DNA of 51,419 nt from a virus (lineage: Duplodnaviria > Caudoviricetes). Below are positions 15,276 to 31,947 of the stretch, in pieces. Under the pieces are notes generated by a model. It was not told the origin of the DNA. It saw only the letters and a list, made by a program, of their open reading frames with translations, and ran no database searches. The number at the start of each line of letters is the position of its first letter. The stretch's first letter is position 1. The stretch lies in IMG/VR virus record IMGVR_UViG_3300012943_000010, positions 1-51,419 of that record. One strand, 5' to 3'. Made by a program: the position numbers and the translations under genes.

Positions 15276-15311
15276 GGCGTGTCCTCGGGCGTTGGGTGTT
15301 GAATGTCCGTA

Positions 15312-15340
15312 ATCCTATCCGTAATGCCGGACTAGGGCAA
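15312..15340 (-). promoter_or_regulatory. sigma70-like promoter for the ParB/DNA-modification operon
   Basis: TTGCCC-N17-TAGGAT, 37 bp upstream of ATG 15275. Confidence 0.55.
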
Positions 15341-15343
15341 CGA

Positions 15344-16216
15344 TTAAGACTCGGCTCGGGCCTTAGAGCAAAGATCCTTCCAGGCACCGAGAACCCGAGG
15401 ATCACGCTTCCAGTATCGCGGCTCACCGCCGTCGAAAGACTCCAGCCTTAGCTCCGTGGCCCGAACGATGTGTTGCGTCTCATAACCGGCACGGAAAAGC
15501 TCCTTAACGTACCCTTCGACTGTCGCGAGGCTTGTGTATTCGCAATGGAAGGTTCGAACCAGACCAACGAGGCCCTTAAAGGTCATAAGCTTTTTCGACT
15601 TAGGAGGAGGAGAGACCGACACTTTATCCTCGACCTCCTGCGGAGCAGGGGGAGTATTTAGATTTTCTTTTTTCAGTTCCTTATTAAGTTCAGGTTCCTC
15701 GATCCAGGTAGGGCTATTCTGTCCTGGAAGTAGACCTAAACTGTCGGGCTCCTCTGATCCAGGGACGGTTACTTGACCACCCTCCTCCGATCCAGGGAGG
15801 TCTTTTTGTTCTGGCTCCTCCTTCCGAACCAGTCGAGGAGTATCGACCACGAGGAGAGACCGAACTAGATCAATAGCCTTTCGAGTAAGTCGGCGGAAAG
15901 TTCTCCCGCTGGCGTCTGTCCAGAACTCGATAAGGCCCTGGGTTTTGAGGTCGGAAAAGCCTGCGGTTATCTGCTTTTTTCCTGCTTCATCGCAGCTTAT
16001 TCCTGCGTACTGACACCAGGAGGATCGAGAGTCCCATCGAACTTCGAATAGATCGAGCAGACCGTTCTCGTTCCTGATCCTGTGTACGAAGAGACCTAGG
16101 AGAGTGTACGCATTCATTTTTAATCGAAGTTTTTTTCCGAGCCGATATACCGCTTGGTGGACTTGAAATGCTGGAAGCTTTACGGCTGGTTGGGCTAGAG
16201 AGAGGGCTGCGCTCAT
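15344..16216 (-). CDS. Putative replication initiator (lambda O-like architecture)
   Basis: N-terminal winged-helix-like region, low-complexity linker carrying DNA repeats, ELNKELKKE motif, helical C-terminus. Confidence 0.55.
   Translation of the reverse strand: MSAALSLAQPAVKLPAFQVHQAVYRLGKKLRLKMNAYTLLGLFVHRIRNENGLLDLFEVRWDSRSSWCQYAGISCDEAGKKQITAGFSDLKTQGLIEFWTDASGRTFRRLTRKAIDLVRSLLVVDTPRLVRKEEPEQKDLPGSEEGGQVTVPGSEEPDSLGLLPGQNSPTWIEEPELNKELKKENLNTPPAPQEVEDKVSVSPPPKSKKLMTFKGLVGLVRTFHCEYTSLATVEGYVKELFRAGYETQHIVRATELRLESFDGGEPRYWKRDPRVLGAWKDLCSKARAES
15661..15800. repeat. Iteron-like repeats plus AT-rich tract (candidate origin)
   Basis: GATCCAGG at 15701, 15756, 15789 (the last two within near-identical CTCCTCyGATCCAGGGA); AT-rich 15661-15690. 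Confidence 0.5.
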
Positions 16217-16331
16217 GACTTTTCTTCTCCGATTTGCACCGAACTCGAAAAGATAAAGCCTTGCGTTGGACGCGCTTGTACTTTAGATTAAGCACATAGG
16301 CCGCTCTTATCCGAGTCGCTGTTTGTTAAAG

Positions 16332-16369
16332 AAGCCAGATAATCTTTTCCGAGAGTGCTGGCTTTTTTT
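16332..16369. terminator. Hairpin with T-tract
   Basis: AAGCCAG...CTGGCTT followed by a T run; intergenic. Confidence 0.45.
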
Positions 16370-16428
16370 ATTTCTACTTTTGTACTTACCTATTTTCTCT
16401 CCGAAATTATACCGAAAAATCCTACACT

Positions 16429-16905
16429 CTATTTCGACCTAATAATATTCCCCTCAGAATCGACAGTGTGCAACGGTCTCTCCGGGTATCGAGCTTTAGG
16501 AGCTTCGGTCGGTTTATCCTCTTTCGTAGCACCTTCCAGCCTTTTCCAGCGTCCTGTCTGATCCCTCTCCGCTTTCTTAACTCGATCCTTCCCTGCCAAA
16601 CTTCTCGGGCTTAATTTTTGTAGGTCGGCTGGTAAAGACAGCTTTACCGACAGCTTTTCCGGCTTACTACACCAGCCAACTCGTTCCAGTATTGTCGCGA
16701 AGGGAATAGGAGCCCTCCACGCAGTAAGGGAGTCGATTTCGGCTACGTGGAACTTTACTCGGTTCTGAGTCGCTACCACCGAAGCCAACATAATAAGCCG
16801 ACCGATAAGGGGAGCTGCGTCCTCTCCGGAGTAAGTCTGGAGGAGCCGGAAAGTTTCGTTACCGAGGAACGCATAGGGCATGTTGAGGGTGTCGCGTCGG
16901 GACAT
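16429..16905 (-). CDS. Hypothetical protein, possibly replication-associated
   Basis: AAAGGAAAG upstream; first gene of the leftward unit before the initiator. Confidence 0.6.
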   Translation of the reverse strand: MSRRDTLNMPYAFLGNETFRLLQTYSGEDAAPLIGRLIMLASVVATQNRVKFHVAEIDSLTAWRAPIPFATILERVGWCSKPEKLSVKLSLPADLQKLSPRSLAGKDRVKKAERDQTGRWKRLEGATKEDKPTEAPKARYPERPLHTVDSEGNIIRSK

Positions 16906-16962
16906 TTTTACTTTCCTTTTTCTTCGGGTATAAGCACACTAGTCTGTCTTAAGGAGTACGAA

Positions 16963-17829
16963 ATGGAATACATCCCAGCCGATAAAAAGCCGTTGTCACA
17001 AGCCAACTGGAAGGACTTAACCGTCCTCCAACCGTTCAACACCAGGACTCCTATCGAAGCTGCTCCGTTGGAAGAACTTCCCTCCCTCCAGCGGCAGTTC
17101 CGAGAGAACGGAGTCGCGGTGCTGGAGAACTTCATACCCCATGACCTCCTCGACGCTTATTCTCTCGTCCGAGCCCGACTCCCTAAAGACCGTTCTGTGC
17201 CTGATAACTATTGGGCTGGATGGCATTATCCGACTCCGTACCAGGACTGTCGAGAACTTCTCGACCTCGCGACCTATCCAGACCTCCAGGGAGCCTTACA
17301 CGCCCTTATCGGAGCGGAGATGGGCCTGCACCTAGCCCTTACCGGATGGGTAAGCACCGAGCGAAAATGGCACCAGGACACCTATCTTAACCCCGAGTTC
17401 CTTTGGAGCTACTACGCTGCCGCCTGGATCGCGCTGGAGGACGTGGAGCCCGAAGCGGGACCGTTCCAGTACATCAAAGGGAGCCACAACTGGAGGTCTC
17501 TCCGTCAGGATAAGTTATTCGAGTTTATGACTCCCGAGGAGAGGAAAGATCCTCGGTGGCCGACTTTTACGCAGGACGAAGTCGCCCGAGTCTGCGAAGC
17601 CGAAATCGAGAGACAGGGAGAGAAGGTCTCCGAGTTTTTGCCGAAAAAGGGAGACGTTCTCATCTGGCACTCGAACTTAGTCCATAGAGGCTCCGAGCCG
17701 AAGAACCCAGACCTCGAACGTCGGGCGCTTATCTGTCACTACTCCTCGATTGGTCGTCGGGTGGATATGGATCGGCTCTCGCGAAATCCTACAAACGGAC
17801 AGCTTTATTTCGATTTCCGTCGGAACTAA
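16963..17829 (+). CDS. PhyH-family 2OG-Fe(II) dioxygenase
   Basis: AAGGAG RBS; FRENGVAV, WHQD, WIALED, GP...GSH, GDVLIWHSNLVHRG. Confidence 0.88.
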   Translation: MEYIPADKKPLSQANWKDLTVLQPFNTRTPIEAAPLEELPSLQRQFRENGVAVLENFIPHDLLDAYSLVRARLPKDRSVPDNYWAGWHYPTPYQDCRELLDLATYPDLQGALHALIGAEMGLHLALTGWVSTERKWHQDTYLNPEFLWSYYAAAWIALEDVEPEAGPFQYIKGSHNWRSLRQDKLFEFMTPEERKDPRWPTFTQDEVARVCEAEIERQGEKVSEFLPKKGDVLIWHSNLVHRGSEPKNPDLERRALICHYSSIGRRVDMDRLSRNPTNGQLYFDFRRN

Positions 17830-17966
17830 GCTCCCTCCCAAACGCTGCGCTTATGCCCCTCTCCCCGTCCGCGATGGACGGGGTTCCCAGGCAAATCCGT
17901 CCTATATCGAACCCCTGAGAGCTCGTCTAGAATATAGGTATAGCAAGCCCTCTAGGAGAGTCGCAC

Positions 17967-18236
17967 ATGAAAGATTGGTTGATAAATTTGGTGGTGGGGA
18001 TGATCCTCAATGCAATCACCGACGATAAAATCGAAAGTCTCGCTCACACCGTTCAGGGATTCCTGATACCATTTCTGAGAGAGCAAAAAGCGGAGCTGGT
18101 TCGTCGCCTGAAAGAAAAGGCTCAAGCTACGGACACGGAAATCGATGACGCGATCTATCACGCCATCGACGTATTCCTGGAAAGCTTCATTCCAAAGGAT
18201 GCCCAGTGCCTCATACCGGCTAAGAAGTCCGCCTGA
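17967..18236 (+). CDS. Hypothetical protein
   Basis: AGGAG RBS; amphipathic helices. Confidence 0.65.
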   Translation: MKDWLINLVVGMILNAITDDKIESLAHTVQGFLIPFLREQKAELVRRLKEKAQATDTEIDDAIYHAIDVFLESFIPKDAQCLIPAKKSA

Positions 18237-18260
18237 TGCTCACCTCTAAAAGCGGAGCCC

Positions 18261-18602
18261 TTACCTCACGGTAAGGGCTTTTTTTATTCTCCAAAATCTC
18301 TTCTCGTTGTTGCAGACGTAAACCGAAATGTCCCATATCGCGGACTTCGCCGCGGTGTGAGCGACCTCGATAGGAAGCACCTCCCCGTACTTCCTTCTCT
18401 CCATAAAGAGTCGAGCCCGGAGCCAGAACTTAAAGAACCGAGCTATCGTCGGGTTCGTCGATATACCTTCGGAAAGGGTATCGTTCTCCAGGTCGATAAC
18501 CAGCGGATCGTCTCGGCTTATGTGGAGCCTAAGATCCTCGGACTTAACCGGCTTAATCTTTTCCCCGTCGATCACAAGGAACGGCTTGCTGAAGTCCTTC
18601 AC
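18261..18602 (-). CDS. Hypothetical protein
   Basis: GTGA-coupled, GGAGG RBS. Confidence 0.6.
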   Translation of the reverse strand: MKDFSKPFLVIDGEKIKPVKSEDLRLHISRDDPLVIDLENDTLSEGISTNPTIARFFKFWLRARLFMERRKYGEVLPIEVAHTAAKSAIWDISVYVCNNEKRFWRIKKALTVR

Positions 18603-18817
18603 CGGCCACCTCCTTTCCTAATCCTCTCCATCCAAGCAGCGTGCTCGGTGTCCCACATCTCGTTAAGCTCCAGGCTCTCGGTTATCACGTCCTCGGGAAC
18701 TTGGTTCTTATCCTCGTGGTATCGAGCTATCGCCGACCGAACCTCCTGCATTCGATCCTCGATCCAGAACAGTCTAGGGCGTATTCCCAGCGTAGGCCGC
18801 TTCTTATCTGCTAGCAT
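18599..18817 (-). CDS. Hypothetical protein
   Basis: Compact ORF in a coupled array. Confidence 0.6.
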   Translation of the reverse strand: MLADKKRPTLGIRPRLFWIEDRMQEVRSAIARYHEDKNQVPEDVITESLELNEMWDTEHAAWMERIRKGGGR

Positions 18818-18951
18818 TATTCACTCCGTTTGCATAAGGCCCGGAAAGGCTCGAAAGTTCCCTCTCGAAAACAACCGAAATCGGGCATGTTCGCTATAAA
18901 CATAGATCGAAAACGAGGGCCTTTCGGAAGCCATCGCGCATAAACATCGCG

Positions 18952-19200
18952 TCAGAGTGGGCGTTTCTCGGGTGAAATTCTCGAGTTTTTCACCTCCGCC
19001 TGGAGACCTTCGTTCAGTTCGCGGAGCAGTCTTTCGGCGCTCTCCCACTGGTGGCTGGTCTGATACCAGAGGATCTTTTCAACGCAGAACCGGATAACCC
19101 CGTCCCGGTCTCTCCCGCGAAGGTGGTGGTCGAGTTCCGGGAGTCGGTATATCAGGCGGCAGCGAAGCCGAGGATCGTTCTTTAAATCCTGGGTGGCCAT
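18952..19200 (-). CDS. Hypothetical protein
   Basis: ORF in a coupled array. Confidence 0.5.
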   Translation of the reverse strand: MATQDLKNDPRLRCRLIYRLPELDHHLRGRDRDGVIRFCVEKILWYQTSHQWESAERLLRELNEGLQAEVKNSRISPEKRPL

Positions 19201-19529
19201 GACCAGCTCCCCGGAGACTTATCCGGATCGTAGGGAGACCGAAGCCCGATAACCGGCTCCACATCGTTCGGCATCATCTGATTAGCGAACACCGAGAGCC
19301 ACACGTCTCCGTTATCGAATAGGCCCGACACAGTAGCCGCCAGGAGCCCGTATTTCGGATCGTGGTAGTGGACAGCCCTCCCGATTGTTGGCGCCGCTCC
19401 AGGGCGTCCTATCACCTTCGCAGGAGCTTCCAGCTCGGCTTGCTCCTTCTGGCAATCAGGACAGAGCGCCGGCCCTCCACATCTAGCGACCGCACCACTT
19501 GCATTTGGCTTAACCCAACCGTGTCCCAT
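19182..19529 (-). CDS. Hypothetical protein with N-terminal His/Cys (Zn-binding) motif
   Basis: GHGWV.PN..G..ARCGGPALCPDC, then PTIGRAVHY...GSWSWPPRI domain. Confidence 0.7.
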   Translation of the reverse strand: MGHGWVKPNASGAVARCGGPALCPDCQKEQAELEAPAKVIGRPGAAPTIGRAVHYHDPKYGLLAATVSGLFDNGDVWLSVFANQMMPNDVEPVIGLRSPYDPDKSPGSWSWPPRI

Positions 19530-19740
19530 CTCTCTCTCCTCTGTTTAATCGCTCCGGCTTCGGAGCAGGTATTCGAGCCGCCCAGAACGTCCAGGCATAC
19601 TCGGCCATCAGATAGGCTTCCTTTACCCGAGGGTTTATCGCCTTCGAGCAGTCGAGACCAGGAGCAGCGTCCCAGCCTCGCATCTTCATAAAGTGTTTCG
19701 CGAGTTCGTTGATCTCTTTCGTCGGTTTTGCACGAGCCAT
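19510..19740 (-). CDS. Hypothetical protein
   Basis: ORF in a coupled array. Confidence 0.55.
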   Translation of the reverse strand: MARAKPTKEINELAKHFMKMRGWDAAPGLDCSKAINPRVKEAYLMAEYAWTFWAARIPAPKPERLNRGERDGTRLG

Positions 19741-19844
19741 ACTATTCCCCATACAGGCATCAAAAGTTGTAGTAGCAAGACTCCCAGACCGAACGCTTGC
19801 TCCGGAGTAAGCCTCTCGATAAATCCAGCGACTCCAGACATCAT
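19686..19844 (-). CDS. Small single-pass membrane protein (52 aa; not in the ORF track)
   Basis: Manual translation MMSGVAGFIERLTPEQAFGLGVLLLQLLMPVWGIVWLVQNRRKRSTNSRNTL; ATGA-coupled. Confidence 0.5.
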   Translation of the reverse strand: MMSGVAGFIERLTPEQAFGLGVLLLQLLMPVWGIVWLVQNRRKRSTNSRNTL

Positions 19845-20323
19845 TTTTTCGGTCTCTCTTTCCAAATTTCGACTACAACCCGGATCGATTTTTGCTGCTT
19901 ATTCGGCTGGTAAAAGTTGTAAATCGTCTCGTACCTTCCGCCCCCCGGCCCTGCTTCCTCGATAGCTCCGCGAGCAACTGCAATTTCGACAGACCTTCGA
20001 ACCAGTCCGGGCTCCGACTCCCAATCGTCGTTGATGGGTACGTTGTCCGGGCGGACCTTCGGATCGAGTTTGAACTCCATGCAGTCGTGCCCGAGTTCGA
20101 CTCCGCTTACCGGGGAAACGTGGGTAAGACAGTCGCGCTCGACTCCAGGGACGGTCCTGTCGACACTGATACACTTTCCCTCGATACACGCGCTGACGAA
20201 CCGATCCGCGAAGCGTTTATCCTTCCGGATCAGTCGCGTCGTGTCTCCCTGCCAACTCATCGTTGACCAAATCACCGAAGCCATAACCACTAGCTGCATA
20301 CGTACCTCTCTCCACATCGACAT
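19841..20323 (-). CDS. Hypothetical protein
   Basis: 160-aa ORF with an RBS-like GGGAAAAG upstream. Confidence 0.55.
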   Translation of the reverse strand: MSMWREVRMQLVVMASVIWSTMSWQGDTTRLIRKDKRFADRFVSACIEGKCISVDRTVPGVERDCLTHVSPVSGVELGHDCMEFKLDPKVRPDNVPINDDWESEPGLVRRSVEIAVARGAIEEAGPGGGRYETIYNFYQPNKQQKSIRVVVEIWKERPKK

Positions 20324-20493
20324 AAATATTCTTTTCCCTTCGGATTAGAAGGGACTTCCACGCTCCAGAAACACCTAGGACAGCTCACCGCATAGAGACA
20401 GGAGTTCTTCTTAATCGGTTCAAATCCGCAATAGATTTTAACCTTCCACTCTCGGATTAGTCGGCGTGTCTTTCGGTATAGATCTTTCGGCAC
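20290..20493 (-). CDS. Small zinc-ribbon-like protein
   Basis: CPRC...CRCG. Confidence 0.4.
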   Translation of the reverse strand: MPKDLYRKTRRLIREWKVKIYCGFEPIKKNSCLYAVSCPRCFWSVEVPSNPKGKEYLCRCGERYVCS

Positions 20494-20636
20494 TGCAACT
20501 CCTGCTTAAGTCTCTCGTCGTGCAGAGCTTGTTCGTCCCAGAAACGATTACAGGCTCCGCAATACTGCTCCTTCTTGTCCCTCGGGTGCTGTGATATCCG
20601 ACCACAGCCTGGGCATTTAAACTTCTCCCAGCTCAC
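20457..20636 (-). CDS. Small zinc-finger protein (59 aa; not in the ORF track)
   Basis: Manual translation MSWEKFKCPGCGRISQHPRDKKEQYCGACNRFW...; GTGA-coupled. Confidence 0.6.
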   Translation of the reverse strand: MSWEKFKCPGCGRISQHPRDKKEQYCGACNRFWDEQALHDERLKQELQCRKIYTERHAD

Positions 20637-21283
20637 CGGATAAATCCTTCCGGGCCTGCGAGTCCCTTCTCGTGACGATCGCGCATCGAAGGGAAGTACA
20701 TTCCTTTCGCGATCACGTCGTCAGTCTCGAAGGCAACGATCATCAGTCGCGATCCTCCGGAGCGATGTCGAATACCGACTCGGTGCATATCGCGGCTGGT
20801 ATATTCGACGATCTGATTAGGTGCTGAAGTCACGAAAGGAAGCGGTTCGAGCTGAGAGACTTCGGAGAAGAACTTCCCATAGTCGGTCTCGAAAGGGAGA
20901 GCTGGAGGGAGGTCGAGAGGCTTCGACATAAAGTCGGTCTCGCACATGTTTCCCCAGGAGCAGAGCATCAGTCTCCAGTCGTCCATCGTCTTCGCAGACC
21001 TCTCTCTCCCGTCCGCGAGTCGGACGTTCACATCGATATGCCAGCCGTCTCCGAGCAGGTTCGAAGGTCTCCCGTGGAACCAGGAGGAGGGCCGAACCTG
21101 GATCACGTTCGGACGGCCCGACCAGGGGAACTGGTCGAGAGCTTCCCGGAGAGCAGGAGTACACTTCTCGTGATTTACGATCTCGTCGTAGCTGCAAGCA
21201 AAGAACTCCGGACAGTCCCAAATGTCTCGATCCGAAATCGGCTTCGTAATGTTTAGGAACCTGTGGCCGGTGTTGTAAATCAT
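20633..21283 (-). CDS. Putative 2OG-Fe(II) oxygenase-fold protein
   Basis: GWHID (HxD) ... MHR ... SRLMI (distal His and 2OG-binding Arg spacing). Confidence 0.55.
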   Translation of the reverse strand: MIYNTGHRFLNITKPISDRDIWDCPEFFACSYDEIVNHEKCTPALREALDQFPWSGRPNVIQVRPSSWFHGRPSNLLGDGWHIDVNVRLADGRERSAKTMDDWRLMLCSWGNMCETDFMSKPLDLPPALPFETDYGKFFSEVSQLEPLPFVTSAPNQIVEYTSRDMHRVGIRHRSGGSRLMIVAFETDDVIAKGMYFPSMRDRHEKGLAGPEGFIR

Positions 21284-21600
21284 GGCGCTCCCCTTCTCGA
21301 TTTCATTAATGGATACCACCAGGGCTTTTTATTTACTCGGCGCTCCTCGTCTAATTGGAGCATCCGATCCTGGATGTTTTGGATCAGTCGGGCCTTGAAT
21401 AATACCCGGCATTCTACGTTCCAAAGCTCTGCGGAGACTTCCTTAAGGACTGCTATAGCCTCGCTTCGGTGTCGCGACGGAAGGAACGAAATCCAGTCTG
21501 TAAGCTGGACGGTATCGTCTCCTATATCGATTATTTTTTCCATGAACTCAGTCGAAAGATATACCGTTCCGAACCGATCCATACTGGTCTCAACGTCCAT
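21280..21600 (-). CDS. Hypothetical protein
   Basis: TAATG-coupled, GGAGGT RBS. Confidence 0.6.
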   Translation of the reverse strand: MDVETSMDRFGTVYLSTEFMEKIIDIGDDTVQLTDWISFLPSRHRSEAIAVLKEVSAELWNVECRVLFKARLIQNIQDRMLQLDEERRVNKKPWWYPLMKSRRGAP

Positions 21601-21875
21601 TAAATCCAGACCTCCTTAATCGCAGGATCATCGTTAATCGAACGGATTAGTTTTACCATTCCGAAGGGAATTAAAGAGAGGTATTGCTCGCGGGTTTTAC
21701 AAATAAATCCGATACCCGACTGGATACCGCCATCGCTGGTGATAGTCCACTGACGGATAACGAAATGGCCTTGAGCGTCGAGGGGGTTCTCGTAGACAAC
21801 GTATTGCATAAGGACTTCGTTCGAGTGCTCGAACTTAGCTTCGGGAGAGTATGGATAGGTTGGAGGATACTGCAT
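21600..21875 (-). CDS. Hypothetical protein
   Basis: VYENPLD..GHFVIRQW...R...DDP.I.EVW pattern seen in small phage proteins. Confidence 0.6.
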   Translation of the reverse strand: MQYPPTYPYSPEAKFEHSNEVLMQYVVYENPLDAQGHFVIRQWTITSDGGIQSGIGFICKTREQYLSLIPFGMVKLIRSINDDPAIKEVWI

Positions 21876-21945
21876 AACCTTTCGGCTCCGGGTATTACGT
21901 TTAGCAATACTTATCGCCGAAAGGCTATCGGAAGTCCATCGGATC

Positions 21946-22698
21946 TTACTCGGGCTTACCGGCTGCAAGCCACGACTCGAAGTCGCCTTTCCAGGTTTGC
22001 AGGTGAGCGTGAACCCACTTGTACGTCATGTACTCTTTATCCTGCTTAGCTCTCAGAACCTCGTTCTCCGCCCAGCCTGGGAGGAACGCCCAGTCGCGTC
22101 CGCCAAGCTTGTCATACATTGCAGCTTCCAGGTGGCCGTAGAACGCAGTCGGCTCACTGAGTCCACCGACTCTCTTAAGCCATCCGTAGCTGAACGCCGA
22201 AATCGAGTTCATCACGGGGCGGCGCGTTACCATCAGGTCGATATACCCGTCGGCTTTTCGACGCTCGTACCCCCTCTCCTCCAGCTCCTTCGCGGCTTGC
22301 TCGTGGATCAGGGAAGCCCATACCACGTTCTGCTTCGAGTCTCCTCGAATAGCGCGGACGAGGGCCATATCCCAGCCCTGTCCTAACGGGTTCGTATCCG
22401 GATCGTAGGCGATAATTACGGCGTGGTCGGGTGGATTTATCTGACGCAGCGCCCAGTTAAAACCGTCGTGGAGCCCGAGGTTCTTTCCTGGATCTAAGAC
22501 CTCGATACCGTGCTCCTCGCAAATCTTTCGAAGCGCGACTCGGTTCTTCTCTTTTTTCAACGGATAGTGTTGGTCAACGAAGTAGTGTTTGTAGCGAAGC
22601 AGAGGGTTTCGAGTAGCGGCGTAAGCGGCTGCGGACTGCTTCCAAATCCGAGCTGGAACGAAGCCGAGCGTGATCGTTATAACATCGAAATCGGACAT
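21946..22698 (-). CDS. Glycosyltransferase, GT-A fold (GT2-like)
   Basis: FVDQ, KNLGLHDGFNWAL, IIAYDPD (DxD), VGGLSE..FYG..E. Confidence 0.7.
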   Translation of the reverse strand: MSDFDVITITLGFVPARIWKQSAAAYAATRNPLLRYKHYFVDQHYPLKKEKNRVALRKICEEHGIEVLDPGKNLGLHDGFNWALRQINPPDHAVIIAYDPDTNPLGQGWDMALVRAIRGDSKQNVVWASLIHEQAAKELEERGYERRKADGYIDLMVTRRPVMNSISAFSYGWLKRVGGLSEPTAFYGHLEAAMYDKLGGRDWAFLPGWAENEVLRAKQDKEYMTYKWVHAHLQTWKGDFESWLAAGKPE

Positions 22699-22729
22699 AA
22701 AAAAAGGCTCCCTGGTTTAAGAGGGAGCC
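22699..22729 (-). terminator. Rho-independent terminator overlapping the RBS of the GT2-like gene
   Basis: GGCTCCCT-N8-AGGGAGCC-T7 followed immediately by ATG 22698. Confidence 0.7.
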
Positions 22730-22804
22730 GTGTCGGGGAAGGCGTCGAACCTTCTCGAAATATATTTTACAACATTCCGGCCTACCCGGCTTGGCTCCCG
22801 ACAC
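22730..22804 (-). ncRNA. tRNA-like element (pseudo-tRNA)
   Basis: 75 nt; 8-bp acceptor GTGTCGGG/CCCGACAC, D-arm GCC..GG..GGC, T-arm GAAGG-TTCGACG-CCTTC; anticodon arm non-canonical; no CCA. Confidence 0.6.
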
Positions 22805-22812
22805 AAGGAAGC

Positions 22813-23202
22813 TTAGTTCTTTTTATTTTTCGCCTCAACCATTTGTTTCCACATCTGATGCAGGAACACCTGGAAGCTCGCGACAGTCGAGGAGTGCATG
22901 ATCGCCGACTGCCAATCGAAGCCCTCGACCTTAAGCCCGGTCACGCCCAAGAACATCGTCAGGGCGGTTATTAAAAGCAGTTTGTACGGGCCTGCGAGAT
23001 ACCCGAGCGGAGAGCGCAAGACGAAAAGGAGCACCTGGATCAGTGCCGCGATACCTCCCATGATACCTGCGCCCTTAAGCCCACCGATTGCATTTAAGAA
23101 GGTCTCCCACTGGCCCGGTTCGACCGGTGCAGTACCATCAGCGAGAGCGAAGGAAGCCGCTGTGAGAAGGAGAAGAACCAGCAAACCCTTTAACCAAGCC
23201 AT
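22813..23202 (-). CDS. Multi-pass membrane protein (holin-like)
   Basis: Signal/TM N-terminus, ~3 further hydrophobic segments, basic C-terminus. Confidence 0.55.
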   Translation of the reverse strand: MAWLKGLLVLLLLTAASFALADGTAPVEPGQWETFLNAIGGLKGAGIMGGIAALIQVLLFVLRSPLGYLAGPYKLLLITALTMFLGVTGLKVEGFDWQSAIMHSSTVASFQVFLHQMWKQMVEAKNKKN

Positions 23203-23358
23203 GTGCGAGCCTCGAAATTTTGAAAGATTTTTGTGTAACTTAATCTTAGCTGTGTAAGCCAGTTCGGGCAATGGATCAGAATTGCCTTTTGTCTTACCCT
23301 TCGGATATGCTAAAGCGACTTCGGAGCTTTTTCCTAAGGATCAAAGGAGGAGACGGTC

Positions 23359-23625
23359 GTGGGTTCTATTTTGGAGTTTAAAAGACGCAGTGTCCGAACC
23401 GACCTTCGGGGAGTTCCGGTCGAGCAGGAGCGAAGCCTCTCAATGGGAGAGCTGGAGCTTAACAGTATCGAGCTGCACGGCAAGCCAGCACTGGCCTTAA
23501 TTATGACTGATCCAAGTCACACCGGGCTCGTTTACGCTTTCGTCAACACGGACGATCTAGCGGATTTTATTCGTGACCTGACGCAGGCTCTCGGAGAGAT
23601 GAAGATCGCAGGAGGTAAGGCTTAA
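23359..23625 (+). CDS. Hypothetical protein
   Basis: AAGGAGG RBS; TTGCCT-N18-TATGCT upstream; TAATG-coupled to the acyltransferase. Confidence 0.65.
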   Translation: MGSILEFKRRSVRTDLRGVPVEQERSLSMGELELNSIELHGKPALALIMTDPSHTGLVYAFVNTDDLADFIRDLTQALGEMKIAGGKA

Positions 23626-24209
23626 TGGGTTGGATGACAGCGACTCAGCTCGCGAAGTTTAAGTCGGTCGGTCGGGAAGTAAAGATCGCAGACGATGTGG
23701 TCGTCTTCGGGCCGGAGAACATCGAAATCGGTGATAACGTCCGGATCGATACCGGATGTGTTCTCCTCGCCTCCGCAGATGGAGCCTGGATAAAGATCGG
23801 CTCCCATATTCACATCGCTTCGAGAGCTATATTCATGGCCTCGGGAGGTATCGAACTCGGTGATTTTTCGACCGTCAGCTTCCAAGCACAGCTCATATCA
23901 GCATCCGATACTTTCGACGGGAGTTATCTTATCGGGCCCGTCTTCGATCCGGAGTTTATCAAGGTTAAAAAGAGTCCTATCCGAACGCAAATGCACTGCT
24001 CGATCGCAGCCGGGAGTACGCTGCTCCCCGGCGCGTGGATGCTGGAGGGTAGCGTCCTTGGAGCTATGTCGATGCTTAAGGAGAGAACGCAGCCTTGGAC
24101 GATTTACGGTGGTGTTCCGGCTAAGCCGATCGGCACCAGGAGCCTAAAGGCCCTGGCGATGGGAGAGGAATGGGAAGCGGTATTTAATTCGAGGTATCCG
24201 AAAGATTAG
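23625..24209 (+). CDS. vioB: Left-handed beta-helix sugar N-acyltransferase (VioB/AntD-like)
   Basis: FKSVG..VKI, ENIEIGDNVRID..CVL, IGSHIHIA, D.F.G.YL.GP, GAMS, YGGVPAKPIG.RS hexapeptide architecture. Confidence 0.75.
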   Translation: MGWMTATQLAKFKSVGREVKIADDVVVFGPENIEIGDNVRIDTGCVLLASADGAWIKIGSHIHIASRAIFMASGGIELGDFSTVSFQAQLISASDTFDGSYLIGPVFDPEFIKVKKSPIRTQMHCSIAAGSTLLPGAWMLEGSVLGAMSMLKERTQPWTIYGGVPAKPIGTRSLKALAMGEEWEAVFNSRYPKD

Positions 24210-24520
24210 GAAGCGTCGAGGATAACTTCGGGCGTGTGGCTACGCCTGATCCTCATCGCCGAGGTCAGGACTGCAACGTCTATTTCGAGCCGCCGCAAGT
24301 CCTTTATCTCGTTTTTTATTTCACTGAGAACCCTGCTCTGCGACTTCCGCATTTCTGCGATATTTTTCCCCTGCTCCTTACCCACTCTGAGAGCTTCCGA
24401 AGCAGTCTTATCTGTCGCGTCGATCTTATCGATAAGGCGTTTCATAAAGAAAATCAGACACGCAAGCAGGAGCGATATAAGCGTCCCGGCTCCGCTAAGC
24501 ACTAGCTCCTGTGTTGTCAT
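24206..24520 (-). CDS. Single-TM plus coiled-coil protein (holin-like)
   Basis: N-terminal TM helix then coiled coil; last gene of the late operon. Confidence 0.55.
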   Translation of the reverse strand: MTTQELVLSGAGTLISLLLACLIFFMKRLIDKIDATDKTASEALRVGKEQGKNIAEMRKSQSRVLSEIKNEIKDLRRLEIDVAVLTSAMRIRRSHTPEVILDAS

Positions 24521-25595
24521 GATTTTTTCTCTCCGCTATATAAGATCGTGTGACCTCGACCACCCTTAAAGTCTCTCCTAGATCCACGTCCGAGGGAAGG
24601 GCACAGCAATTTTTCATCACCTCTGCCGATACCGATACCCTCTCCACATCGCGGAGTGCCGGCATTCGGGAAAGAAGCGGATAATACCGTCTGAATACGA
24701 TACCTTCTCGCTCCGAAGCGGCTTCCAGGGCTTCCGCCGGTAAGTTCCCGAGGACGCAGAGTGAAGGGAATTTTTTACCGGGAGGAACATACGCCTGGGG
24801 AAAAGCTTCCTGGTATCGGTCGAGCGTCAGCCTTTTGGCGTCGATCCTCTCCTCGACAGCTTCCAGTCCGATAGCAGAGAGGGAGTTTATCAGGAACGAG
24901 GACTTGAGCTCGTCGAGCTTCGAGTTCGATCCTCGAAGGGAAGCGATCTCCCTATTCGACAGAGTATCGAAATTGATTAAACGCTTAGCGTGCTTCGCCT
25001 GTCGTTCCGACCGGAACACAATCATTCCGCCCTCTCCGACTCCGACGTTCTTCGTAGCGTGAAAGGAATAACAGACCGGTGCTATCGTCTTCGGAAAGTT
25101 CCCGAACGCTCCTGCGAAGTCGTAGACCAGCGCGAACCCGGCTCGATCCTGCAGCAAGTCCCAAGCCAGAACATCGACCTCGTATCCGAAGGGGGAGACC
25201 ACGATAACCCCGTCGATCCTCTGCTCCCGACAGACCTTCTCGACCTCATCCGGACGGAGGCACCACGTCTTAGGATCCACCCCAGCTAAGACCGGAGTTA
25301 AACCAGCCCTCACAACCGCGAGGATGGTCCCTGAGTGCGTGAAGTCGGGGAGGAGAACCCTATCACCCGGTTCGAGCCCGAGGACGGCCAGGGCCACCTC
25401 GATAGCCGCGGTGCCGGTCGACACCGGGACGGCGTACCCCCCAGTGATCTTACACAGCCTTTTTTCGAGTCTTTCGTGGATCGCGCCGAAGTTCGTCAGC
25501 ATTCCCGAGAGGGCCGCTGACGTGAACGTAGCAATCGAGTCCGATAGGTTCGGCATGAGAGGACGGATCAGAGGTATCGACGGCGTTTCGTGCAT
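24495..25595 (-). CDS. vioA: DegT/DnrJ/EryC1/StrS PLP sugar aminotransferase (VioA-like)
   Basis: IPLIRP, LTNFG..H..LE, STGTAA, YDFAGAFG, SFHATK (PLP Lys), GEGG, GSNSKLDE, RRYYP. Confidence 0.85.
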   Translation of the reverse strand: MHETPSIPLIRPLMPNLSDSIATFTSAALSGMLTNFGAIHERLEKRLCKITGGYAVPVSTGTAAIEVALAVLGLEPGDRVLLPDFTHSGTILAVVRAGLTPVLAGVDPKTWCLRPDEVEKVCREQRIDGVIVVSPFGYEVDVLAWDLLQDRAGFALVYDFAGAFGNFPKTIAPVCYSFHATKNVGVGEGGMIVFRSERQAKHAKRLINFDTLSNREIASLRGSNSKLDELKSSFLINSLSAIGLEAVEERIDAKRLTLDRYQEAFPQAYVPPGKKFPSLCVLGNLPAEALEAASEREGIVFRRYYPLLSRMPALRDVERVSVSAEVMKNCCALPSDVDLGETLRVVEVTRSYIAERKNHDNTGASA

Positions 25596-25609
25596 TCTCG
25601 ACTGTCCTT

Positions 25610-26614
25610 TTATCCAGGGTAAACGATCTTTCCTAGAGCCCATTTTACAACGTCCTCGGGCTTCGGGAGCCAAGATCGAAGGAGCTTTTCGTCCACGTTT
25701 TCGAGACTGATTTCGTGCTTAGTGTTCGGGAGTTCCGAGACGACATCCCAGTATCCTCCGAGCCCGAGGTTCTCCATCCTCCAGCCGAACTCAGCGCCAG
25801 GGCCGCGCCAGTGAGTGATGTAGTCCGGATGCTTTACCGTTGCGATATAACCGATCCAGGTCGAGCCCGAAGCGGCCATGTGAAGCGGAGAGCTGTCGTT
25901 CGTGATAAGGACAGGCGAATGTTGCAGTAAAGCCACGCACTGCATGATGCTAAGACGACTACGAAGGTCAACACAACCAGTCGTATCCACGTCAACCGTT
26001 CCTCGATTGTCATCGCAGTTCTCCCCTATTAATACCGGCGTGATGCCGGAGTACATCAGTCGGTCGAGAACCGCGTTCCACCAGTCTTTCGGGAAGGTCT
26101 TAGAGGGCCAGTGCTTACCAGCGTGGACGACCACGTACTTCGATCCGACCAGCTCCGACAGATAATACTCGGCCACCGAAACGTCATCCGGAGAAGGGTA
26201 AAGCTGCACCGGCTTAAACTCGATAGGAAGCATGGATCGGAAGGAGCAGAGCGATGCGTAGTCAACGCAGTTCACGAGCATGTGGGACATAAACTCCCAG
26301 GTTAAATGCCCGTTCGACTGGATCGTATCGAAGATCAGATACTCCGCTGGATCATACTTTTCACGACCGCACCGCACGACGTTATCGAACGGCAGGTGCT
26401 GGAAAAGCTCGGGGAGTTCGGAGCCGAGAGTTATCCGAGCTTCCTTGAACTTATGCAGGGCATAGCGCAAGGTCGGCTCGGCACATATCTGATCGCCGAT
26501 ACCTCCCCAAGTCCTTACCATTATATTTCGTTCGACACCGTGCTCCAGGGCCATCGCGGTCCTAAAGCTCGGTATCTGCATTGCAGGAATAACTACGTTG
26601 TCTACTGGAAGCAT
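25610..26614 (-). CDS. Glycosyltransferase family 9-like (GT-B)
   Basis: GGIGDQI, VVHAG..WPSKTFP..WW, DLRSRLS, ITNDSSPLHMAA. Confidence 0.85.
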   Translation of the reverse strand: MLPVDNVVIPAMQIPSFRTAMALEHGVERNIMVRTWGGIGDQICAEPTLRYALHKFKEARITLGSELPELFQHLPFDNVVRCGREKYDPAEYLIFDTIQSNGHLTWEFMSHMLVNCVDYASLCSFRSMLPIEFKPVQLYPSPDDVSVAEYYLSELVGSKYVVVHAGKHWPSKTFPKDWWNAVLDRLMYSGITPVLIGENCDDNRGTVDVDTTGCVDLRSRLSIMQCVALLQHSPVLITNDSSPLHMAASGSTWIGYIATVKHPDYITHWRGPGAEFGWRMENLGLGGYWDVVSELPNTKHEISLENVDEKLLRSWLPKPEDVVKWALGKIVYPG

Positions 26615-26627
26615 TTGGGTCTCTCTT

Positions 26628-27992
26628 TTAAGCGAAATATTCGAGCTGGATCAACGGCATGTCAACCCGAGCACCGAGGTTTATGTTCTGCTCTAAAGCA
26701 GCATCGTAGAGCAAAATGGTGTTGTTCCACAGCTTAAGGGAGTAGGAGGTTCCAGGGACAACATCGATAGTCGTCTCCCTTACCAGCTCGTGACTCAGTA
26801 TCTTTCCGATATACCCGGAAGCCACAATCGTCGGAGAGCTATAGTTGAAAGAAGTTCCGTTCCCGAGGGTATAGTTCCCCGAGTCGTCGTAACCCCATCC
26901 GTACAGGATACCGTCATCACCACCGGCAAAGATTACGCCGGCCTTAGTCCCACAGAGGGTAACGTAGCGACGGTTCCCTGACACAAGAGTCGGAGACGAT
27001 ACCGAGTTCGAACCAAGAGAGCCGTTTACATTCCCATCACCCCACCAGTAAAGCTGTCCGTCTTTCGTGATACCCGCTGCCGCACCGTTCTGCGCAGTAG
27101 TTGCGAGAGCCACGAACTTATATCCGCCGACTGTCTGCACCGGGCTCGAAGTGTTCGCGGTCGAGTTATTCCCGATCCGACCTCCACTGTTCTCTCCCCA
27201 ACCCCAGGCATTTCCATCGACATCGAGAGCCATCGGTCCGTTTCCGATACCGTAAAGCCTATAGAACTCAGTCGAGCCCGAGACGAGGTTTGGCGTACTG
27301 CGCTCGATAGTGGTCCCTGCTCCGAGACCTCCAAAGAAGTCGTAACCCCAGCTCAAGGCCACGTTGTCGTCCTGTCGGAGAGCCACGGAAAAACCGCTAT
27401 AGAGCTGGACTTGGCGGAAGGTTCCTCCGAACGAAATAGCAACCGGTGTCGACTTAGCAATGGTGGTTCCGTCTCCGAGTTCTCCGCTGGTGTTCGTACC
27501 CCAGACGTAAAGCTCTCCTCGGTCGGTGATACCCGCTGTCGAGCGGTCGCCAGCCGATACCTGCACCCACTTCCGGTTCCCGTTGACGACCAGTGTCGGA
27601 GTCGATTTATCGACGATCGTTCCGTCTCCGAGCTGTCCCTTATCGTTCCTTCCCCAGGTGTAAAGATCACCGAACTCATCGATAGCCGCGAAGTGCTGGT
27701 TGGATCCACCCGCGATCATCTTCCACTTCTTTTTCGTAGGTAAAAGGAAGGGGTTCGACTTCGTGACGACAGTCGCATCGCCGAGCTGTCCTCGTGATCC
27801 GGAACCCCACATATAGAGGTCTCCGTTCTGAGTGATAAGGCCCTGGGCGTTACCGTTCGACGAGTCCGAAGACGAGGCCATCTGTCCGACTCGAAGCTCG
27901 CGAAAGACCTTTACAGCGATCTTAGTAACGCCAGGAGGAACCGACCAATCAGAGTCATATTTAAAGCGCTTCGTGACTAGATTCTTTCCCAT
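26628..27992 (-). CDS. RCC1-repeat beta-propeller, putative receptor-binding tail protein
   Basis: About 7 repeats of G.LY.WG.N..GQLGDGT...KSTP; located after baseplate and fibre genes. Confidence 0.85.
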   Translation of the reverse strand: MGKNLVTKRFKYDSDWSVPPGVTKIAVKVFRELRVGQMASSSDSSNGNAQGLITQNGDLYMWGSGSRGQLGDATVVTKSNPFLLPTKKKWKMIAGGSNQHFAAIDEFGDLYTWGRNDKGQLGDGTIVDKSTPTLVVNGNRKWVQVSAGDRSTAGITDRGELYVWGTNTSGELGDGTTIAKSTPVAISFGGTFRQVQLYSGFSVALRQDDNVALSWGYDFFGGLGAGTTIERSTPNLVSGSTEFYRLYGIGNGPMALDVDGNAWGWGENSGGRIGNNSTANTSSPVQTVGGYKFVALATTAQNGAAAGITKDGQLYWWGDGNVNGSLGSNSVSSPTLVSGNRRYVTLCGTKAGVIFAGGDDGILYGWGYDDSGNYTLGNGTSFNYSSPTIVASGYIGKILSHELVRETTIDVVPGTSYSLKLWNNTILLYDAALEQNINLGARVDMPLIQLEYFA

Positions 27993-28004
27993 TTCATGCT
28001 CCTT

Positions 28005-29414
28005 TTAGACGATCCAGTAGTTGCGGCCGAGTACGTTATCTGCTTTGAAAGTCCACGCGCCGTAGTCGGCTTCGAGGTACATTCCGCCCTGTCCTTCGAT
28101 TTTCATCGTGGCGCCGTTCGAGACTCCTATCTGCACAGTAAGCCGAGAGAAGTTCCCACCAACGTCCTTGATCGTCCACTTCGCGTTCTTCACGTCCCCC
28201 GAGAACTGAGCAAGGTAAACGTAAGTCCCATCTGAGAGAGCCGAGAAGTCGCAGAGCAGAGTCTTTCCATCCCAAGTTGAATCGAAATACTGGAGTTCGT
28301 TCGCGTCGAGCAGAACACTCTCTCCGGAGAGGGCTCCAGGATCAGCGGTCACGACGTTACCTGGATGCCGAATGTCGAACACCTGGATATCGGATACTGT
28401 CGTCCCGTCCTCTCCCGCGAGGATCAGATGGCAGAGTCCCTTATATCCAGCCGGAGCATCCGCAAGGCCGTCGTTGATGTCGAAAAATACACCCGACTTC
28501 GAGTTATAAGAGAACGAAGGAGTCGGGTAAAAGACGAATATTTTATCGTCAACGCCCAGACAGACTGTCGCGAGTTGATACTTGCCGGCCTCTGGAATAA
28601 CAGGAGTAAACGTGTCGTCGTACCCTCCCGAAATAACGCCGGTCTCCATATCGACGAAGGTATCGACGTTCTGTGCACCGTTGAACGTGTCGCGAGGGAA
28701 AAGGGACTTCTTACCAGCCTTAATATAGGAAAAGCCGAGAGGCTTATTCCGGACGTTGGCCTGTCCCATGTACGTGATATCGCCCTGGATCGCGGGCTTA
28801 ATACCTATCGCTTTGTAGCTTGTTTTGTAGGGCCGGAGACGATCATCCCAGATGCCGTGTACGTCTAAACCAGTCGCGTTTTTCATCGGCATATCGCGGA
28901 TTGCGAAGTCGATGTCAGCGTTACCATCGAAGTTGAAACTAGGATTTAAATACACGCCACAGAGGATCACATCGTCAGCGCCCTTCGCAGGATACTCGGG
29001 AGTAAGGCTCTCGACTCCTCGGATACCAACGATCTCATAGCCCTGGAGGGCCTTTAGATTTACGGTCGAGTTCGGATCGATCGGAGAGGTTATCGGAGTC
29101 GTGTTCGTGATCTTAGGACGCATGACCAAGAGGGCTCTCTCGGGGAGAGATACTGGAGCAGTAAAGGAGTAATTCTGGAACGCGACGTGATACATAAGCT
29201 TCCCGGTCGGGGAGACCGCGATACCCGGATTTACTCGAACACCACGGCCCGAAGCTCGAAGACACCCGAGCCCGGTAAGGACAGCGGCGCCGTAGGCTCC
29301 TTCCATACTCCCGCGAGTCGTCGAAGCCATCGCGTCTTGAAAGGAGGTAAAGTCGTCTTGCGTCCACAGATAACGAAAGTAAAAATTATAGAAACTGATG
29401 CTAGAGTTGGCCAT
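28005..29414 (-). CDS. Putative tail fibre / baseplate-proximal fibre protein
   Basis: Position after the gp48-like gene; N-terminal GAAVLTGL...V.V.PG.A...G.L pattern. Confidence 0.6.
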   Translation of the reverse strand: MANSSISFYNFYFRYLWTQDDFTSFQDAMASTTRGSMEGAYGAAVLTGLGCLRASGRGVRVNPGIAVSPTGKLMYHVAFQNYSFTAPVSLPERALLVMRPKITNTTPITSPIDPNSTVNLKALQGYEIVGIRGVESLTPEYPAKGADDVILCGVYLNPSFNFDGNADIDFAIRDMPMKNATGLDVHGIWDDRLRPYKTSYKAIGIKPAIQGDITYMGQANVRNKPLGFSYIKAGKKSLFPRDTFNGAQNVDTFVDMETGVISGGYDDTFTPVIPEAGKYQLATVCLGVDDKIFVFYPTPSFSYNSKSGVFFDINDGLADAPAGYKGLCHLILAGEDGTTVSDIQVFDIRHPGNVVTADPGALSGESVLLDANELQYFDSTWDGKTLLCDFSALSDGTYVYLAQFSGDVKNAKWTIKDVGGNFSRLTVQIGVSNGATMKIEGQGGMYLEADYGAWTFKADNVLGRNYWIV

Positions 29415-29428
29415 ATCCGTTGCAACCT

Positions 29429-30115
29429 TTATACGACGTGGGTTTGGTTATCCGAAATCAAGTGTCCGGATCGAGCCGGTTCCGCTGGTATTAAAGCAGT
29501 ATCGAGAGCCTCGTACTCGGACGGACTGAGAGTGTATCCGAAGATTTTAACCTCGTAGGTATAAGCCTGCTTTTTCATACCGTCCCACACCTCCTGCGTA
29601 AGTCCGTAGTCCGCTGGATTGATGTCGCAAGCGCCATCACCCGTCACCGTAAGCATGTTGTAGTTGCCAAGATACGTGTTGTATCCGAGCAATGAAACAC
29701 CTAATTGCCATGCTCCAAACTCTCCACCCGAGCAGTTCCATTCGACGATTTCGACATCCTTATCGGAGCCGATAATACCGAGCACTGCTTCCTTAATATC
29801 ACCCTTCGTAATCCCTTTTTTCGCTCGAAGTTTAACCACAACACGGTCGCGGCGTTCAGCGAGAGACAGGGACGCAACGAGGGGGAAGCCGAAAGCGGTG
29901 ATTTCCCAATCGGTGATCCTCTCGTCGGAGGTCTGCGGCCAATAGTTCTCGTAGATCCGTTCGAGGTTCGCGTATCCAGTCGCTGCAACATCGGCCACCG
30001 AAGCCATATCGGCGGTCGAGAAGTAAGCCGACGCTGCTCCGTCAGGATAAACCCCCTCGGGAAGCTCCCGCTGGAGGAGCCGGTATATCTCGTTCCTATT
30101 CAGAAATTTAGGCAT
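29429..30115 (-). CDS. Baseplate wedge protein (Mu gp48/DUF2313-like)
   Basis: LLQRELP.G, P.T....ITDWE...G, ERRDRV..KL, EPAR. Confidence 0.8.
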   Translation of the reverse strand: MPKFLNRNEIYRLLQRELPEGVYPDGAASAYFSTADMASVADVAATGYANLERIYENYWPQTSDERITDWEITAFGFPLVASLSLAERRDRVVVKLRAKKGITKGDIKEAVLGIIGSDKDVEIVEWNCSGGEFGAWQLGVSLLGYNTYLGNYNMLTVTGDGACDINPADYGLTQEVWDGMKKQAYTYEVKIFGYTLSPSEYEALDTALIPAEPARSGHLISDNQTHVV

Positions 30116-30118
30116 CGC

Positions 30119-31321: not shown

Positions 31322-31325
31322 TCCG

Positions 31326-31700: not shown

Positions 31701-31710
31701 GCTCTCTCCC

Positions 31711-31947
31711 TTACGTGATTTGAAGTGGTACCGGTGCCGCCGGCCCTGTCTGAGTCGCTGCCGAACCGCTCGTTACGATCGCGCTCGCAGGGATAATAAC
31801 CAGTCCGTTAGCCGTCAGATACTCGACGATAGCCTCTCCGATTGCAGCGCAGAACGGATCGAGGTCCGCTGACGCAGGAGCTTCGGCTTGCGTTGCGATT
31901 ATCTTTGCCTTGATGGCGTCTCCCATTCCTGCTCCGACTAAAGGCAT
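31711..31947 (-). CDS. Small baseplate/spike-associated protein
   Basis: Between spike and gp46-like genes; AI..AIVEYL..N, TSGSAATQTG. Confidence 0.6.
   Translation of the reverse strand: MPLVGAGMGDAIKAKIIATQAEAPASADLDPFCAAIGEAIVEYLTANGLVIIPASAIVTSGSAATQTGPAAPVPLQIT

Follow-up and report, generated by a model that had tools for sequence, protein, structure and literature searches.

The window analysed here, a stretch of 51,419 bp, is the complete record of a soil virus, a phage (IMG/VR IMGVR_UViG_3300012943_000010), with direct terminal repeats. Its minus strand carries a 75-nt tRNA-shaped cloverleaf at 22730–22804 that runs directly into a predicted intrinsic-terminator hairpin (22706–22729), a U7 tract (T7 in the DNA, 22699–22705) and, immediately after it, the ATG (22698–22696) of a gene for a 250-residue, weakly GT2-like protein (21946–22698). 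The gene upstream on the same strand encodes a small membrane protein (22813–23202), and its stop codon, TAA at 22815–22813, is separated from the cloverleaf by 8 nt. Together the element, hairpin and U-tract occupy 106 of the 114 nt between that stop codon and the ATG. This arrangement, with the Shine-Dalgarno (SD) sequence buried in the hairpin stem, had been described in an earlier reading made from the DNA letters (the sequence-only reading) and is confirmed by the sequence, by RNAfold and by a terminator scan. We consider it somewhat better than an even chance (about 55%) that the locus holds a lineage-specific tRNA-derived cassette, in which a non-canonical and probably non-decoding cloverleaf RNA gene, with its own ordinary and probably leaky Rho-independent terminator, has been inserted between the membrane-protein and GT2-like genes.

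The acceptor stem of the cloverleaf comprises 8 perfect base pairs, evident in both sequence and fold, between GTGTCGGG (22804–22797) and CCCGACAC (22737–22730). The D-arm, GCC/GGGTA/GGC (22790–22780), has a 3-bp stem with GG in its loop. It is followed by an A/U-rich anticodon-like arm of 8 bp, two of them G-U (22779–22756), that ends in an 8-nt loop, TGTAAAAT (22771–22764), and by a canonical 5-bp T-arm, GAAGG/TTCGACG/CCTTC (22754–22738). All 24 drawn pairs are standard, 22 being Watson-Crick and two G-U. Numbered as by ARAGORN, positions 14 to 19 of the D-loop read A, purine, two pyrimidines and GG, and in the T-loop the usual T54–A58 and G53:C61 positions are kept. The position after the acceptor is A, not U, and U8 is absent. 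Two drawings of the D-arm are possible; the D-loop GG is present in both, the U8 position is A or G, and the connector is 1 or 6 nt long according to the D-stem chosen. The variable region is 1 nt (2 at most) before the T-stem, and CCA is not encoded, the cloverleaf being followed by GGC. The 75-nt cloverleaf with its 8-bp acceptor, T-arm, D-arm GG and long anticodon arm, lacking U8 and CCA, had been placed correctly throughout by the sequence-only reading.

The minimum free energy (MFE) structure given by RNAfold is exactly this cloverleaf followed by the hairpin, at −48.5 kcal/mol and with 0.64 of the ensemble; pair probabilities in the acceptor and the terminator are 0.97–0.997. None of 200 shuffles is equally stable (z = −4.39), and the self-match of the R1 model to the cloverleaf scores 109 bits. 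The combination of a 5-bp T-stem and TTCRANN loop with a directly abutting perfect acceptor of at least 7 bp, closing 66–95 nt, is seen a single time in the window; 300 windows simulated with its dinucleotide composition contain two. Since only ∼0.007 such patterns are expected per window, the tRNA shape is no chance fold. The upper half of a tRNA, comprising the elbow and the acceptor/T stack, is intact, and the anticodon half is deviant.

The hairpin, found both by the terminator scan and in the folds, has an 8-bp stem with six G-C pairs, formed by GGCTCCCT (22729–22722) and AGGGAGCC (22713–22706), and an 8-nt loop. On its own it folds at −14.5 kcal/mol, and it ranks among the top two terminator-like sites of 15000–32000. 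Together with the U7 tract it has the features of a Rho-independent terminator, as a prediction. The SD-like GGGAG of the downstream gene lies within the 3′ arm AGGGAGCC, the ATG follows 7 nt past the stem, and there is no room for a promoter belonging to this gene alone. Two weak promoter-like sequences can be seen by eye further upstream. The first, TTGAGG-17-TAAGCT, ends 5 nt before 22804 and was not called by the promoter scan; the second, TTGCCC-17-TAAGAT at 23271–23243, lies within that scan and falls below its threshold.

The protein encoded downstream, read from ATG 22698, has 72 homologues and conserved aspartates D99 and D101 in a YDPD motif. It was described as GT2-like in the sequence-only reading. 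Weak Pfam PF00535 matches are found in 15 of 41 aligned homologues (best E 2.9e-4), and one homologue is labelled 'GT2 family glycosyltransferase' by its source; PF00535 does not match the window's own protein, and for this protein no relative in the PDB is found by sequence. We regard the assignment as plausible but weak.

Comparison with tRNA models

At default settings ARAGORN finds no tRNA gene in the window, and no Rfam family matches at its gathering threshold. The tRNA family itself, RF00005 (gathering score 29 bits), gives no match at E ≤ 10, whether searched against the whole record, a 501-nt stretch or a 126-nt stretch. ARAGORN, named in the sequence-only reading as a means of checking the element, and the Rfam covariance models both reject it as a canonical tRNA. 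The best Rfam family is bacterial tRNA-Sec (RF01852), which in the 126-nt search covers exactly 22730–22804 at 21.2 bits (E 0.026), compared with a gathering score of 47. This model rewards a long acceptor and the T-loop, places the single lower hairpin of the element in the variable arm and leaves the anticodon arm as a deletion. The element shares an acceptor of more than 7 bp and the T-loop with tRNA-Sec, and differs from it in having no UCA anticodon, no long variable arm and no 6-bp D-stem; on these differences in anticodon and variable arm, the single lower hairpin and the low score, membership of this family was rejected.

When its threshold is lowered to 85% of the default or less, ARAGORN calls the element 'tRNA-??? 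(gtaa)' with an 8-nt anticodon loop, in a drawing that at 85% requires an A-A mismatch and an extra base between T-stem and acceptor. If introns are allowed, the element is named tRNA-Tyr (gta) with a 3-nt insert. At the 85% threshold, however, 13 matches are reported in the window compared with 5–14 in 20 shuffles. Because shuffled sequences give as many matches at that threshold, the relaxed call carries no weight, and all calls of this kind (tRNA-??? gtaa, tRNA-Tyr with a 3-nt 'intron', and a mitochondrial tRNA-Thr) were dropped as evidence.

Two structural comparisons separate the halves of the molecule. The element has an acceptor of at least the 7 bp of a tRNA, stacked on a 5-bp T-stem with a TTCRANN-type loop; it does not have the 5-bp anticodon stem, the 7-nt loop with U33 or a variable region of at least 4 nt. 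Real tRNAs score ∼20–23 bits against a covariance model built from the element alone, namely a tRNA-Asn in the related phage locus L012 (21.1), a tRNA-Arg in L085 (22.7) and a tRNA-Thr in L083 (20.5). We conclude from its predicted structure that the element is probably tRNA-derived but non-canonical and non-decoding. A literature search at the level of listings gave nothing specific on natural phage tRNAs with 8-nt loops or on tRNA decoys, and an initial search yielded no more than general background on RNase P and tRNA-like RNAs. A 2023 survey reports tRNA-like candidate RNAs in IMG/VR phages (PMC10690425).

A phage attachment site (attP) overlapping a tRNA gene was also considered and rejected. 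Both acceptor strands are present, giving a complete cloverleaf, and this reading is unlikely because no integrase was found among the 77 open reading frames (ORFs) scanned, some small ORFs lying outside the scan.

Related loci and searches for homologues

The locus was compared with 19 viral-contig and 31 metagenome-contig loci that carry homologues of the GT-like gene, the closest at 56% protein identity. Nearer homologues, P0002–P0008 (81–63% identity), several of P0002–P0007 being encoded by contigs of 44–51 kb, lie outside the compared loci; P0008 is not in the viral contigs, and a search of genome contigs for closer GT-like homologues gave no match. By their major capsid proteins, three of four records tested are true relatives of the phage (79%, 72% and 64% identity).

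The membrane-protein gene has homologues in L003, L004 and L005, in each case directly upstream of the GT-like gene. Its probable start in the window is ATG 23202, which gives a signal-peptide-like N-terminus; the ORF list starts it at TTG 23271. The records of L003 and L005 have major capsid proteins 79% and 64% identical to that of the window, and the L004 record lies outside the capsid test. In L004 the two genes overlap by ATGA, and in L003 and L005 they are separated by ∼110–120 nt in which a small hydrophobic ORF can be seen by eye. The element is absent from all three loci, and none has a convincing terminator between the two genes. As the gene pair is adjacent in three relatives and overlapping in one, we take the cloverleaf and terminator to be an insertion. 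One form of this event was considered in which GGGAGCC is a target duplication made on insertion into an older hairpin (GCTTCC...GGGAGC, 22812–22794, which forms transiently in folded prefixes). It leaves unexplained why the 5′ acceptor strand, which would be the 'old' part, matches the 3′ strand perfectly.

Searched with the element model, with the window as positive control, 51 related loci give no match other than a canonical tRNA-Asn in L012 (3808–3883, plus strand). This tRNA gene encodes its CCA and lies in a same-strand gap two genes downstream of the GT-like gene, in a related phage whose capsid protein is 72% identical. By eye, the tRNA-Asn is preceded by a promoter-like TTGACT, the ribosome-binding site (RBS) of the next gene follows within 25 nt, and there is no terminator. 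Nothing was found with the element model in five whole related records, where an empty answer is uninformative. Of five related records searched for tRNA genes, three contain a canonical single tRNA.

Broader searches gave no homologue. An exact 25-mer spanning T-arm and acceptor is absent from the viral contigs, and blastn and tblastn against GenBank phages gave no match. A pattern running from the D-arm to the T-loop matches once in the viral contigs, in L056, a phage record that the window's capsid protein does not match. In genome contigs the same pattern matches 64 loci, mostly chance matches in coding regions, ordinary tRNAs and other tRNA-like elements, and the A/U-rich arm is present in none of the 64. 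Among sequencing runs the element is covered by X1 only, which is probably the source run, while X2–X4 cover short flanking pieces; none of the runs listed is of RNA. The X3 piece, 151 nt identical to the window at 22804–22954, ends exactly at the first base of the cloverleaf; this could reflect a variant that lacks the element or a coincidence of assembly, and is too little to interpret.

Several of the RNAs retrieved in this way are of interest in their own right. The L056 match (13329–13397, plus strand) is a 69-nt RNA that ARAGORN calls at default settings as 'tRNA-??? (tagc)', with a 4-base anticodon and an 8-nt anticodon loop. Its D-arm is likewise GCC/GGGTA/GGC, a likeness that extends to the T-loop and follows by construction from the search pattern, and it occupies a short interval between two ORFs of the same strand. 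A conserved tRNA-like RNA of 69–70 nt is found in ten loci (L064, L078, L079, L086, L087, L095, L101, L105, L106 and L119; for example L087:5654–5723, plus strand), eight of them from Solirubrobacteraceae genomes and two, including L086, labelled only Actinobacteria. It has an 8-bp acceptor-like stem with a directly abutting D-arm, a canonical T-arm, and CTTCA, CTTTA or TTTTA in the lower loop. Default ARAGORN, applied to nine of the ten loci, makes no call in any of them, and Rfam at gathering thresholds makes none in the two scanned; the neighbouring genes in L087 are uninformative.

Repeats of ∼150 nt, in one to three units, occur in L058, L060, L080, L081, L085, L091, L103 and L115 (for example L060:1268–1621, plus strand), which belong to metagenome-assembled genomes (MAGs) of Gammaproteobacteria, including Woeseiaceae, and to one MAG labelled Halobacteria. 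Where both tRNAs are called, the repeats sit between tRNA-His and tRNA-Lys. Each unit ends in a tRNA-like 3′ part, from D-arm through T-arm to an acceptor-like strand, and none receives a tRNA call from ARAGORN or Rfam. In a Streptomyces locus (L067:6416–6490, minus strand) the match is to an apparent 3′ two-thirds of a tRNA, with TGTAAAT in the loop, a variable arm, the T-arm and the 3′ acceptor strand. It has no matching 5′ part and could be the remnant of an integration site.

The proposed cassette and its alternatives

A tRNA-derived cassette would act as part of a short transcription unit comprising a promoter, the membrane-protein gene, the tRNA-like RNA and the terminator. The unit would have its own promoter region upstream of the membrane-protein gene, as suggested by the plus-strand genes that lie beyond it, including a hexapeptide transferase gene at 23625–24209. 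Most transcripts would end at the hairpin and U7 tract. RNase P recognises the acceptor/T-arm stack of its substrates, and because this stack is intact and a U precedes the first G, the element is a plausible substrate. The host enzyme would cut at its 5′ end and trimming would follow at the 3′ end, to release a stable RNA of ∼75 nt from the end of the mRNA; alternatively, the element may protect the 3′ end of the mRNA. Expression of the GT2-like gene would depend entirely on read-through transcripts and be weak, as its SD is held in the 3′ arm of the −14.5 kcal/mol hairpin, which would then be a fixed insulator or damper and no regulated switch.

This explanation draws on the single dominant fold, the tRNA-like upper half and the occurrence of tRNA genes within same-strand runs in this phage group. 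Several points weigh against it. The element is a single sequence for which no homologue was found, so that neither structural selection nor the history of insertion has support from covariation, and termination, processing and release are all deduced. It would be awkward for a conserved gene to sit directly behind a strong terminator, with its SD sequestered and nothing to relieve either, which leaves some room for regulation, and an alternative fold lies just 4.5 kcal/mol above the MFE. Perfect stems combined with reshaped junctions could also point to a function outside that of a cassette.

The element might instead be a functionless relic, a tRNA gene decaying after insertions and deletions in the anticodon and variable regions, with the terminator or its mere bulk being harmless. 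As a singleton that is absent from the relatives examined and fails the tRNA detectors, with odd features that a few such changes could produce, it would fit this description. However, the departures from a tRNA are in the lengths of arms and connectors and no pair is broken, which is unlike the prediction of simple decay. All 24 pairs are standard, an 8-bp anticodon-like stem requires changes on one strand to be matched on the other, the elbow nucleotides are retained, and the genome is tightly packed, with the whole of the 114-nt gap in use. We consider a relic unlikely. A decaying tRNA with an ordinary terminator had been named in the sequence-only reading as the outcome that would refute it; the tRNA origin and ordinary terminator come closest to the evidence, whereas the intact stems oppose the decay.

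At the opposite extreme, the element may represent a functional and undescribed class of phage tRNA mimic, with a histidine-type acceptor in its top half, an over-long A/U-rich helix and a tyrosine-like loop. It would be cut by RNase P and act in trans as a decoy or recoding tRNA, while the terminator throttled the glycosyltransferase. We hold this to be an improbable reading, to about the same degree as the relic.

A decoy or sponge for a tRNA-targeting defence nuclease of the host, or for some other tRNA-binding protein, would act in trans and have no role in translation. Such a role is attractive because the U-G-U-A-A stretch of the loop, which we take to resemble the anticodon loop of tyrosine tRNA, sits on a helix too long for decoding. 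The acceptor, T-arm, elbow and stems are intact while the anticodon arm has a geometry that looks undecodable, and ARAGORN with introns allowed reads tRNA-Tyr (gta), with its 3-nt insert, at settings that give noise-level matches. Phage tRNAs that counter tRNA-cleaving defences are described, as for PARIS (PMC11455837). There is, however, no defence or counter-defence context around the element, whose neighbours are sugar-modification genes, a loop motif of 4–5 nt is weak evidence, the relaxed ARAGORN calls do not rise above noise, and no homologues were found. A decoy is in our view a doubtful proposition, slightly more so than the relic.

The sequence-only reading had favoured a tRNA-mimic attenuator with two mutually exclusive folds. 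The cloverleaf would allow termination and hide the SD, whereas pairing of a GGGAGCC heptamer in its 5′ part (22793–22799, the proposed antiterminator strand) with GGCTCCC (22729–22723) in the terminator 5′ arm would give read-through and an open RBS; the choice would be made by a factor binding to, or unfolding, the tRNA-like domain. The complementarity exists as described, the heptamer being identical to that in the terminator 3′ arm (second copy at 22712–22706), and with no room for a promoter and the SD inside the hairpin a means of relief would be useful. When this antiterminator is forced, the fold has an energy of −44.0 kcal/mol compared with the MFE of −48.5, the 4.5 kcal/mol difference already mentioned, and GCTTCCT (22812–22806) additionally pairs with the terminator 3′ arm. 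The antiterminator pairs nevertheless have an equilibrium probability of 0.003. Folding of growing prefixes gives a transient 5′ hairpin, GCTTCC/GGGAGC, that is displaced by the acceptor once its 3′ strand has been made, and during transcription the acceptor is already closed when the terminator 5′ arm emerges. When the terminator was held fixed and the 86-nt leader shuffled, 20.5% of 400 dinucleotide shuffles equalled or beat the 4.5 kcal/mol gap between the best terminator-free fold and the MFE.

The heptamer itself is unremarkable in this genome. The minus strand has 13 copies of GGGAGCC and the plus strand eight, with ∼4.5 expected per strand (∼3-fold over-representation on the coding strand), often directly before start codons or in terminator-like arms. 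A second terminator-like hairpin at ∼50550–50510 (minus strand) also has it in its 3′ arm, followed by a T-run; this hairpin and the over-representation suggest that GGGAGCC is a recurrent terminator/RBS motif in the phage. No riboswitch or T-box family in Rfam matches above noise, and no relative examined carries the element. By these models there is no competitive, kinetically reachable antiterminator of the kind that an attenuator or riboswitch requires. The alternative fold is neither favoured nor statistically unusual, and the proposal of two mutually exclusive folds is not upheld; we regard a switch as very unlikely.

Little credence can be given to a functional but deviant decoding tRNA, either a quadruplet reader ('gtaa' in an 8-nt loop) or a histidine-type G-1:C73 acceptor with a GUA anticodon: the 8-bp acceptor with a G paired to the last C, the canonical T-arm, the D-loop GG, the 8-nt anticodon loop drawn by ARAGORN at 85% and the default call of a 4-base anticodon in the unrelated L056 are in its favour, but RF00005 gives no match, tRNA-Sec is far below its gathering score, the ARAGORN drawing needs a mismatch and an extra base and is equalled by shuffles, no CCA is encoded, the genome reads normally in table 11, and an in-frame TTAC on the coding strand is absent from all 25 ORF pairs that overlap in +1.

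Phage setting and related RNAs

Nearly all genes of the window are on the minus strand. Genes for terminase, major head protein, tail sheath and baseplate proteins identify a myovirus-type phage, and the window also carries numerous sugar-nucleotide, glycosyltransferase and DNA-hypermodification genes. The sugar-nucleotide genes are dispersed (956–2546, minus strand; 46356–47288, plus strand; 23625–26614) and encode a dTDP-4-dehydrorhamnose 3,5-epimerase, a 4,6-dehydratase-type epimerase, an RmlD-like reductase, a DegT-type aminotransferase, a hexapeptide transferase and a GT9-like protein, a set with which the phage may synthesise a modified amino-sugar and transfer it. A cluster of DNA-hypermodification type (11132–13670, minus strand) includes an amino acid:DNA transferase (ADDT) with a weak aGPT-Pplase3 match, a weak glutamine amidotransferase match and a TET-associated glycosyltransferase, and is adjoined by two ParB-like genes (13663–15275). 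Immediately downstream of the baseplate genes lies a gene (26628–27992, minus strand) for a 454-residue RCC1-repeat protein, at the usual location of tail-fibre or receptor-binding proteins.

Phage tRNA genes (RF00005), which often have an intrinsic terminator, resemble the element in their ∼75-nt cloverleaf, canonical T-arm, D-loop GG and perfect acceptor, and in a same-strand intergenic position such as that of the L012 tRNA-Asn. The element differs from them in having no match to default ARAGORN or RF00005, no U8 or CCA, an 8-bp acceptor, an 8-bp anticodon stem, an 8-nt loop and a variable region of 1–2 nt. Non-decoding tRNA-like RNAs include the tRNA-like domain of tmRNA, bacterial YrlA, the 'tRNA-Other' of Bacillus cereus, eukaryotic mascRNA and the tRNA-like structures (TLS) of plant viruses. 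Such RNAs keep the acceptor, T-arm and elbow half, by which processing enzymes recognise them, and have an altered or missing anticodon half, and some are cut by RNase P from longer transcripts. The element shares the kept top half; no Rfam family of this kind is matched, and no sequence homologues were found.

The C4 antisense RNA of phages P1 and P7 is a cloverleaf-like RNA of ∼77 nt that RNase P releases and that is encoded ahead of the genes under its control. The likeness of the element to C4 (RF01695) lies in a cloverleaf of similar size. A C4-like antisense role was rejected, the sole C4 match being on the opposite strand at 12.2 bits against a gathering score of 45, which is noise. No antisense target for the anticodon-like loop and arm was found in the genome (15-mers with up to three mismatches), the only match being to itself. 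Leaders with a terminator and antiterminator, such as T-boxes and attenuators, have in common with the locus a terminator before a gene and, further upstream, a segment complementary to the 5′ arm of that terminator. T-boxes, however, bind tRNA and are not themselves tRNA-shaped, whereas the element is tRNA-shaped and matches no T-box or riboswitch. In its likely mode of action it is closest to a phage tRNA gene with its own terminator, or to the non-decoding tRNA-like RNAs that retain only the top half.

The finding carries modest weight at present, as it concerns one sequence and the claim of a switch is unsupported. It does illustrate that clean cloverleaves in viral genomes are missed by Rfam and by tRNA finders at their default settings. 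Should the RNA prove stable and processed, it would add a structurally distinct tRNA mimic to the tRNA-like RNAs of phages that standard annotation has missed, and would exemplify a tRNA-shaped module that punctuates a phage operon.

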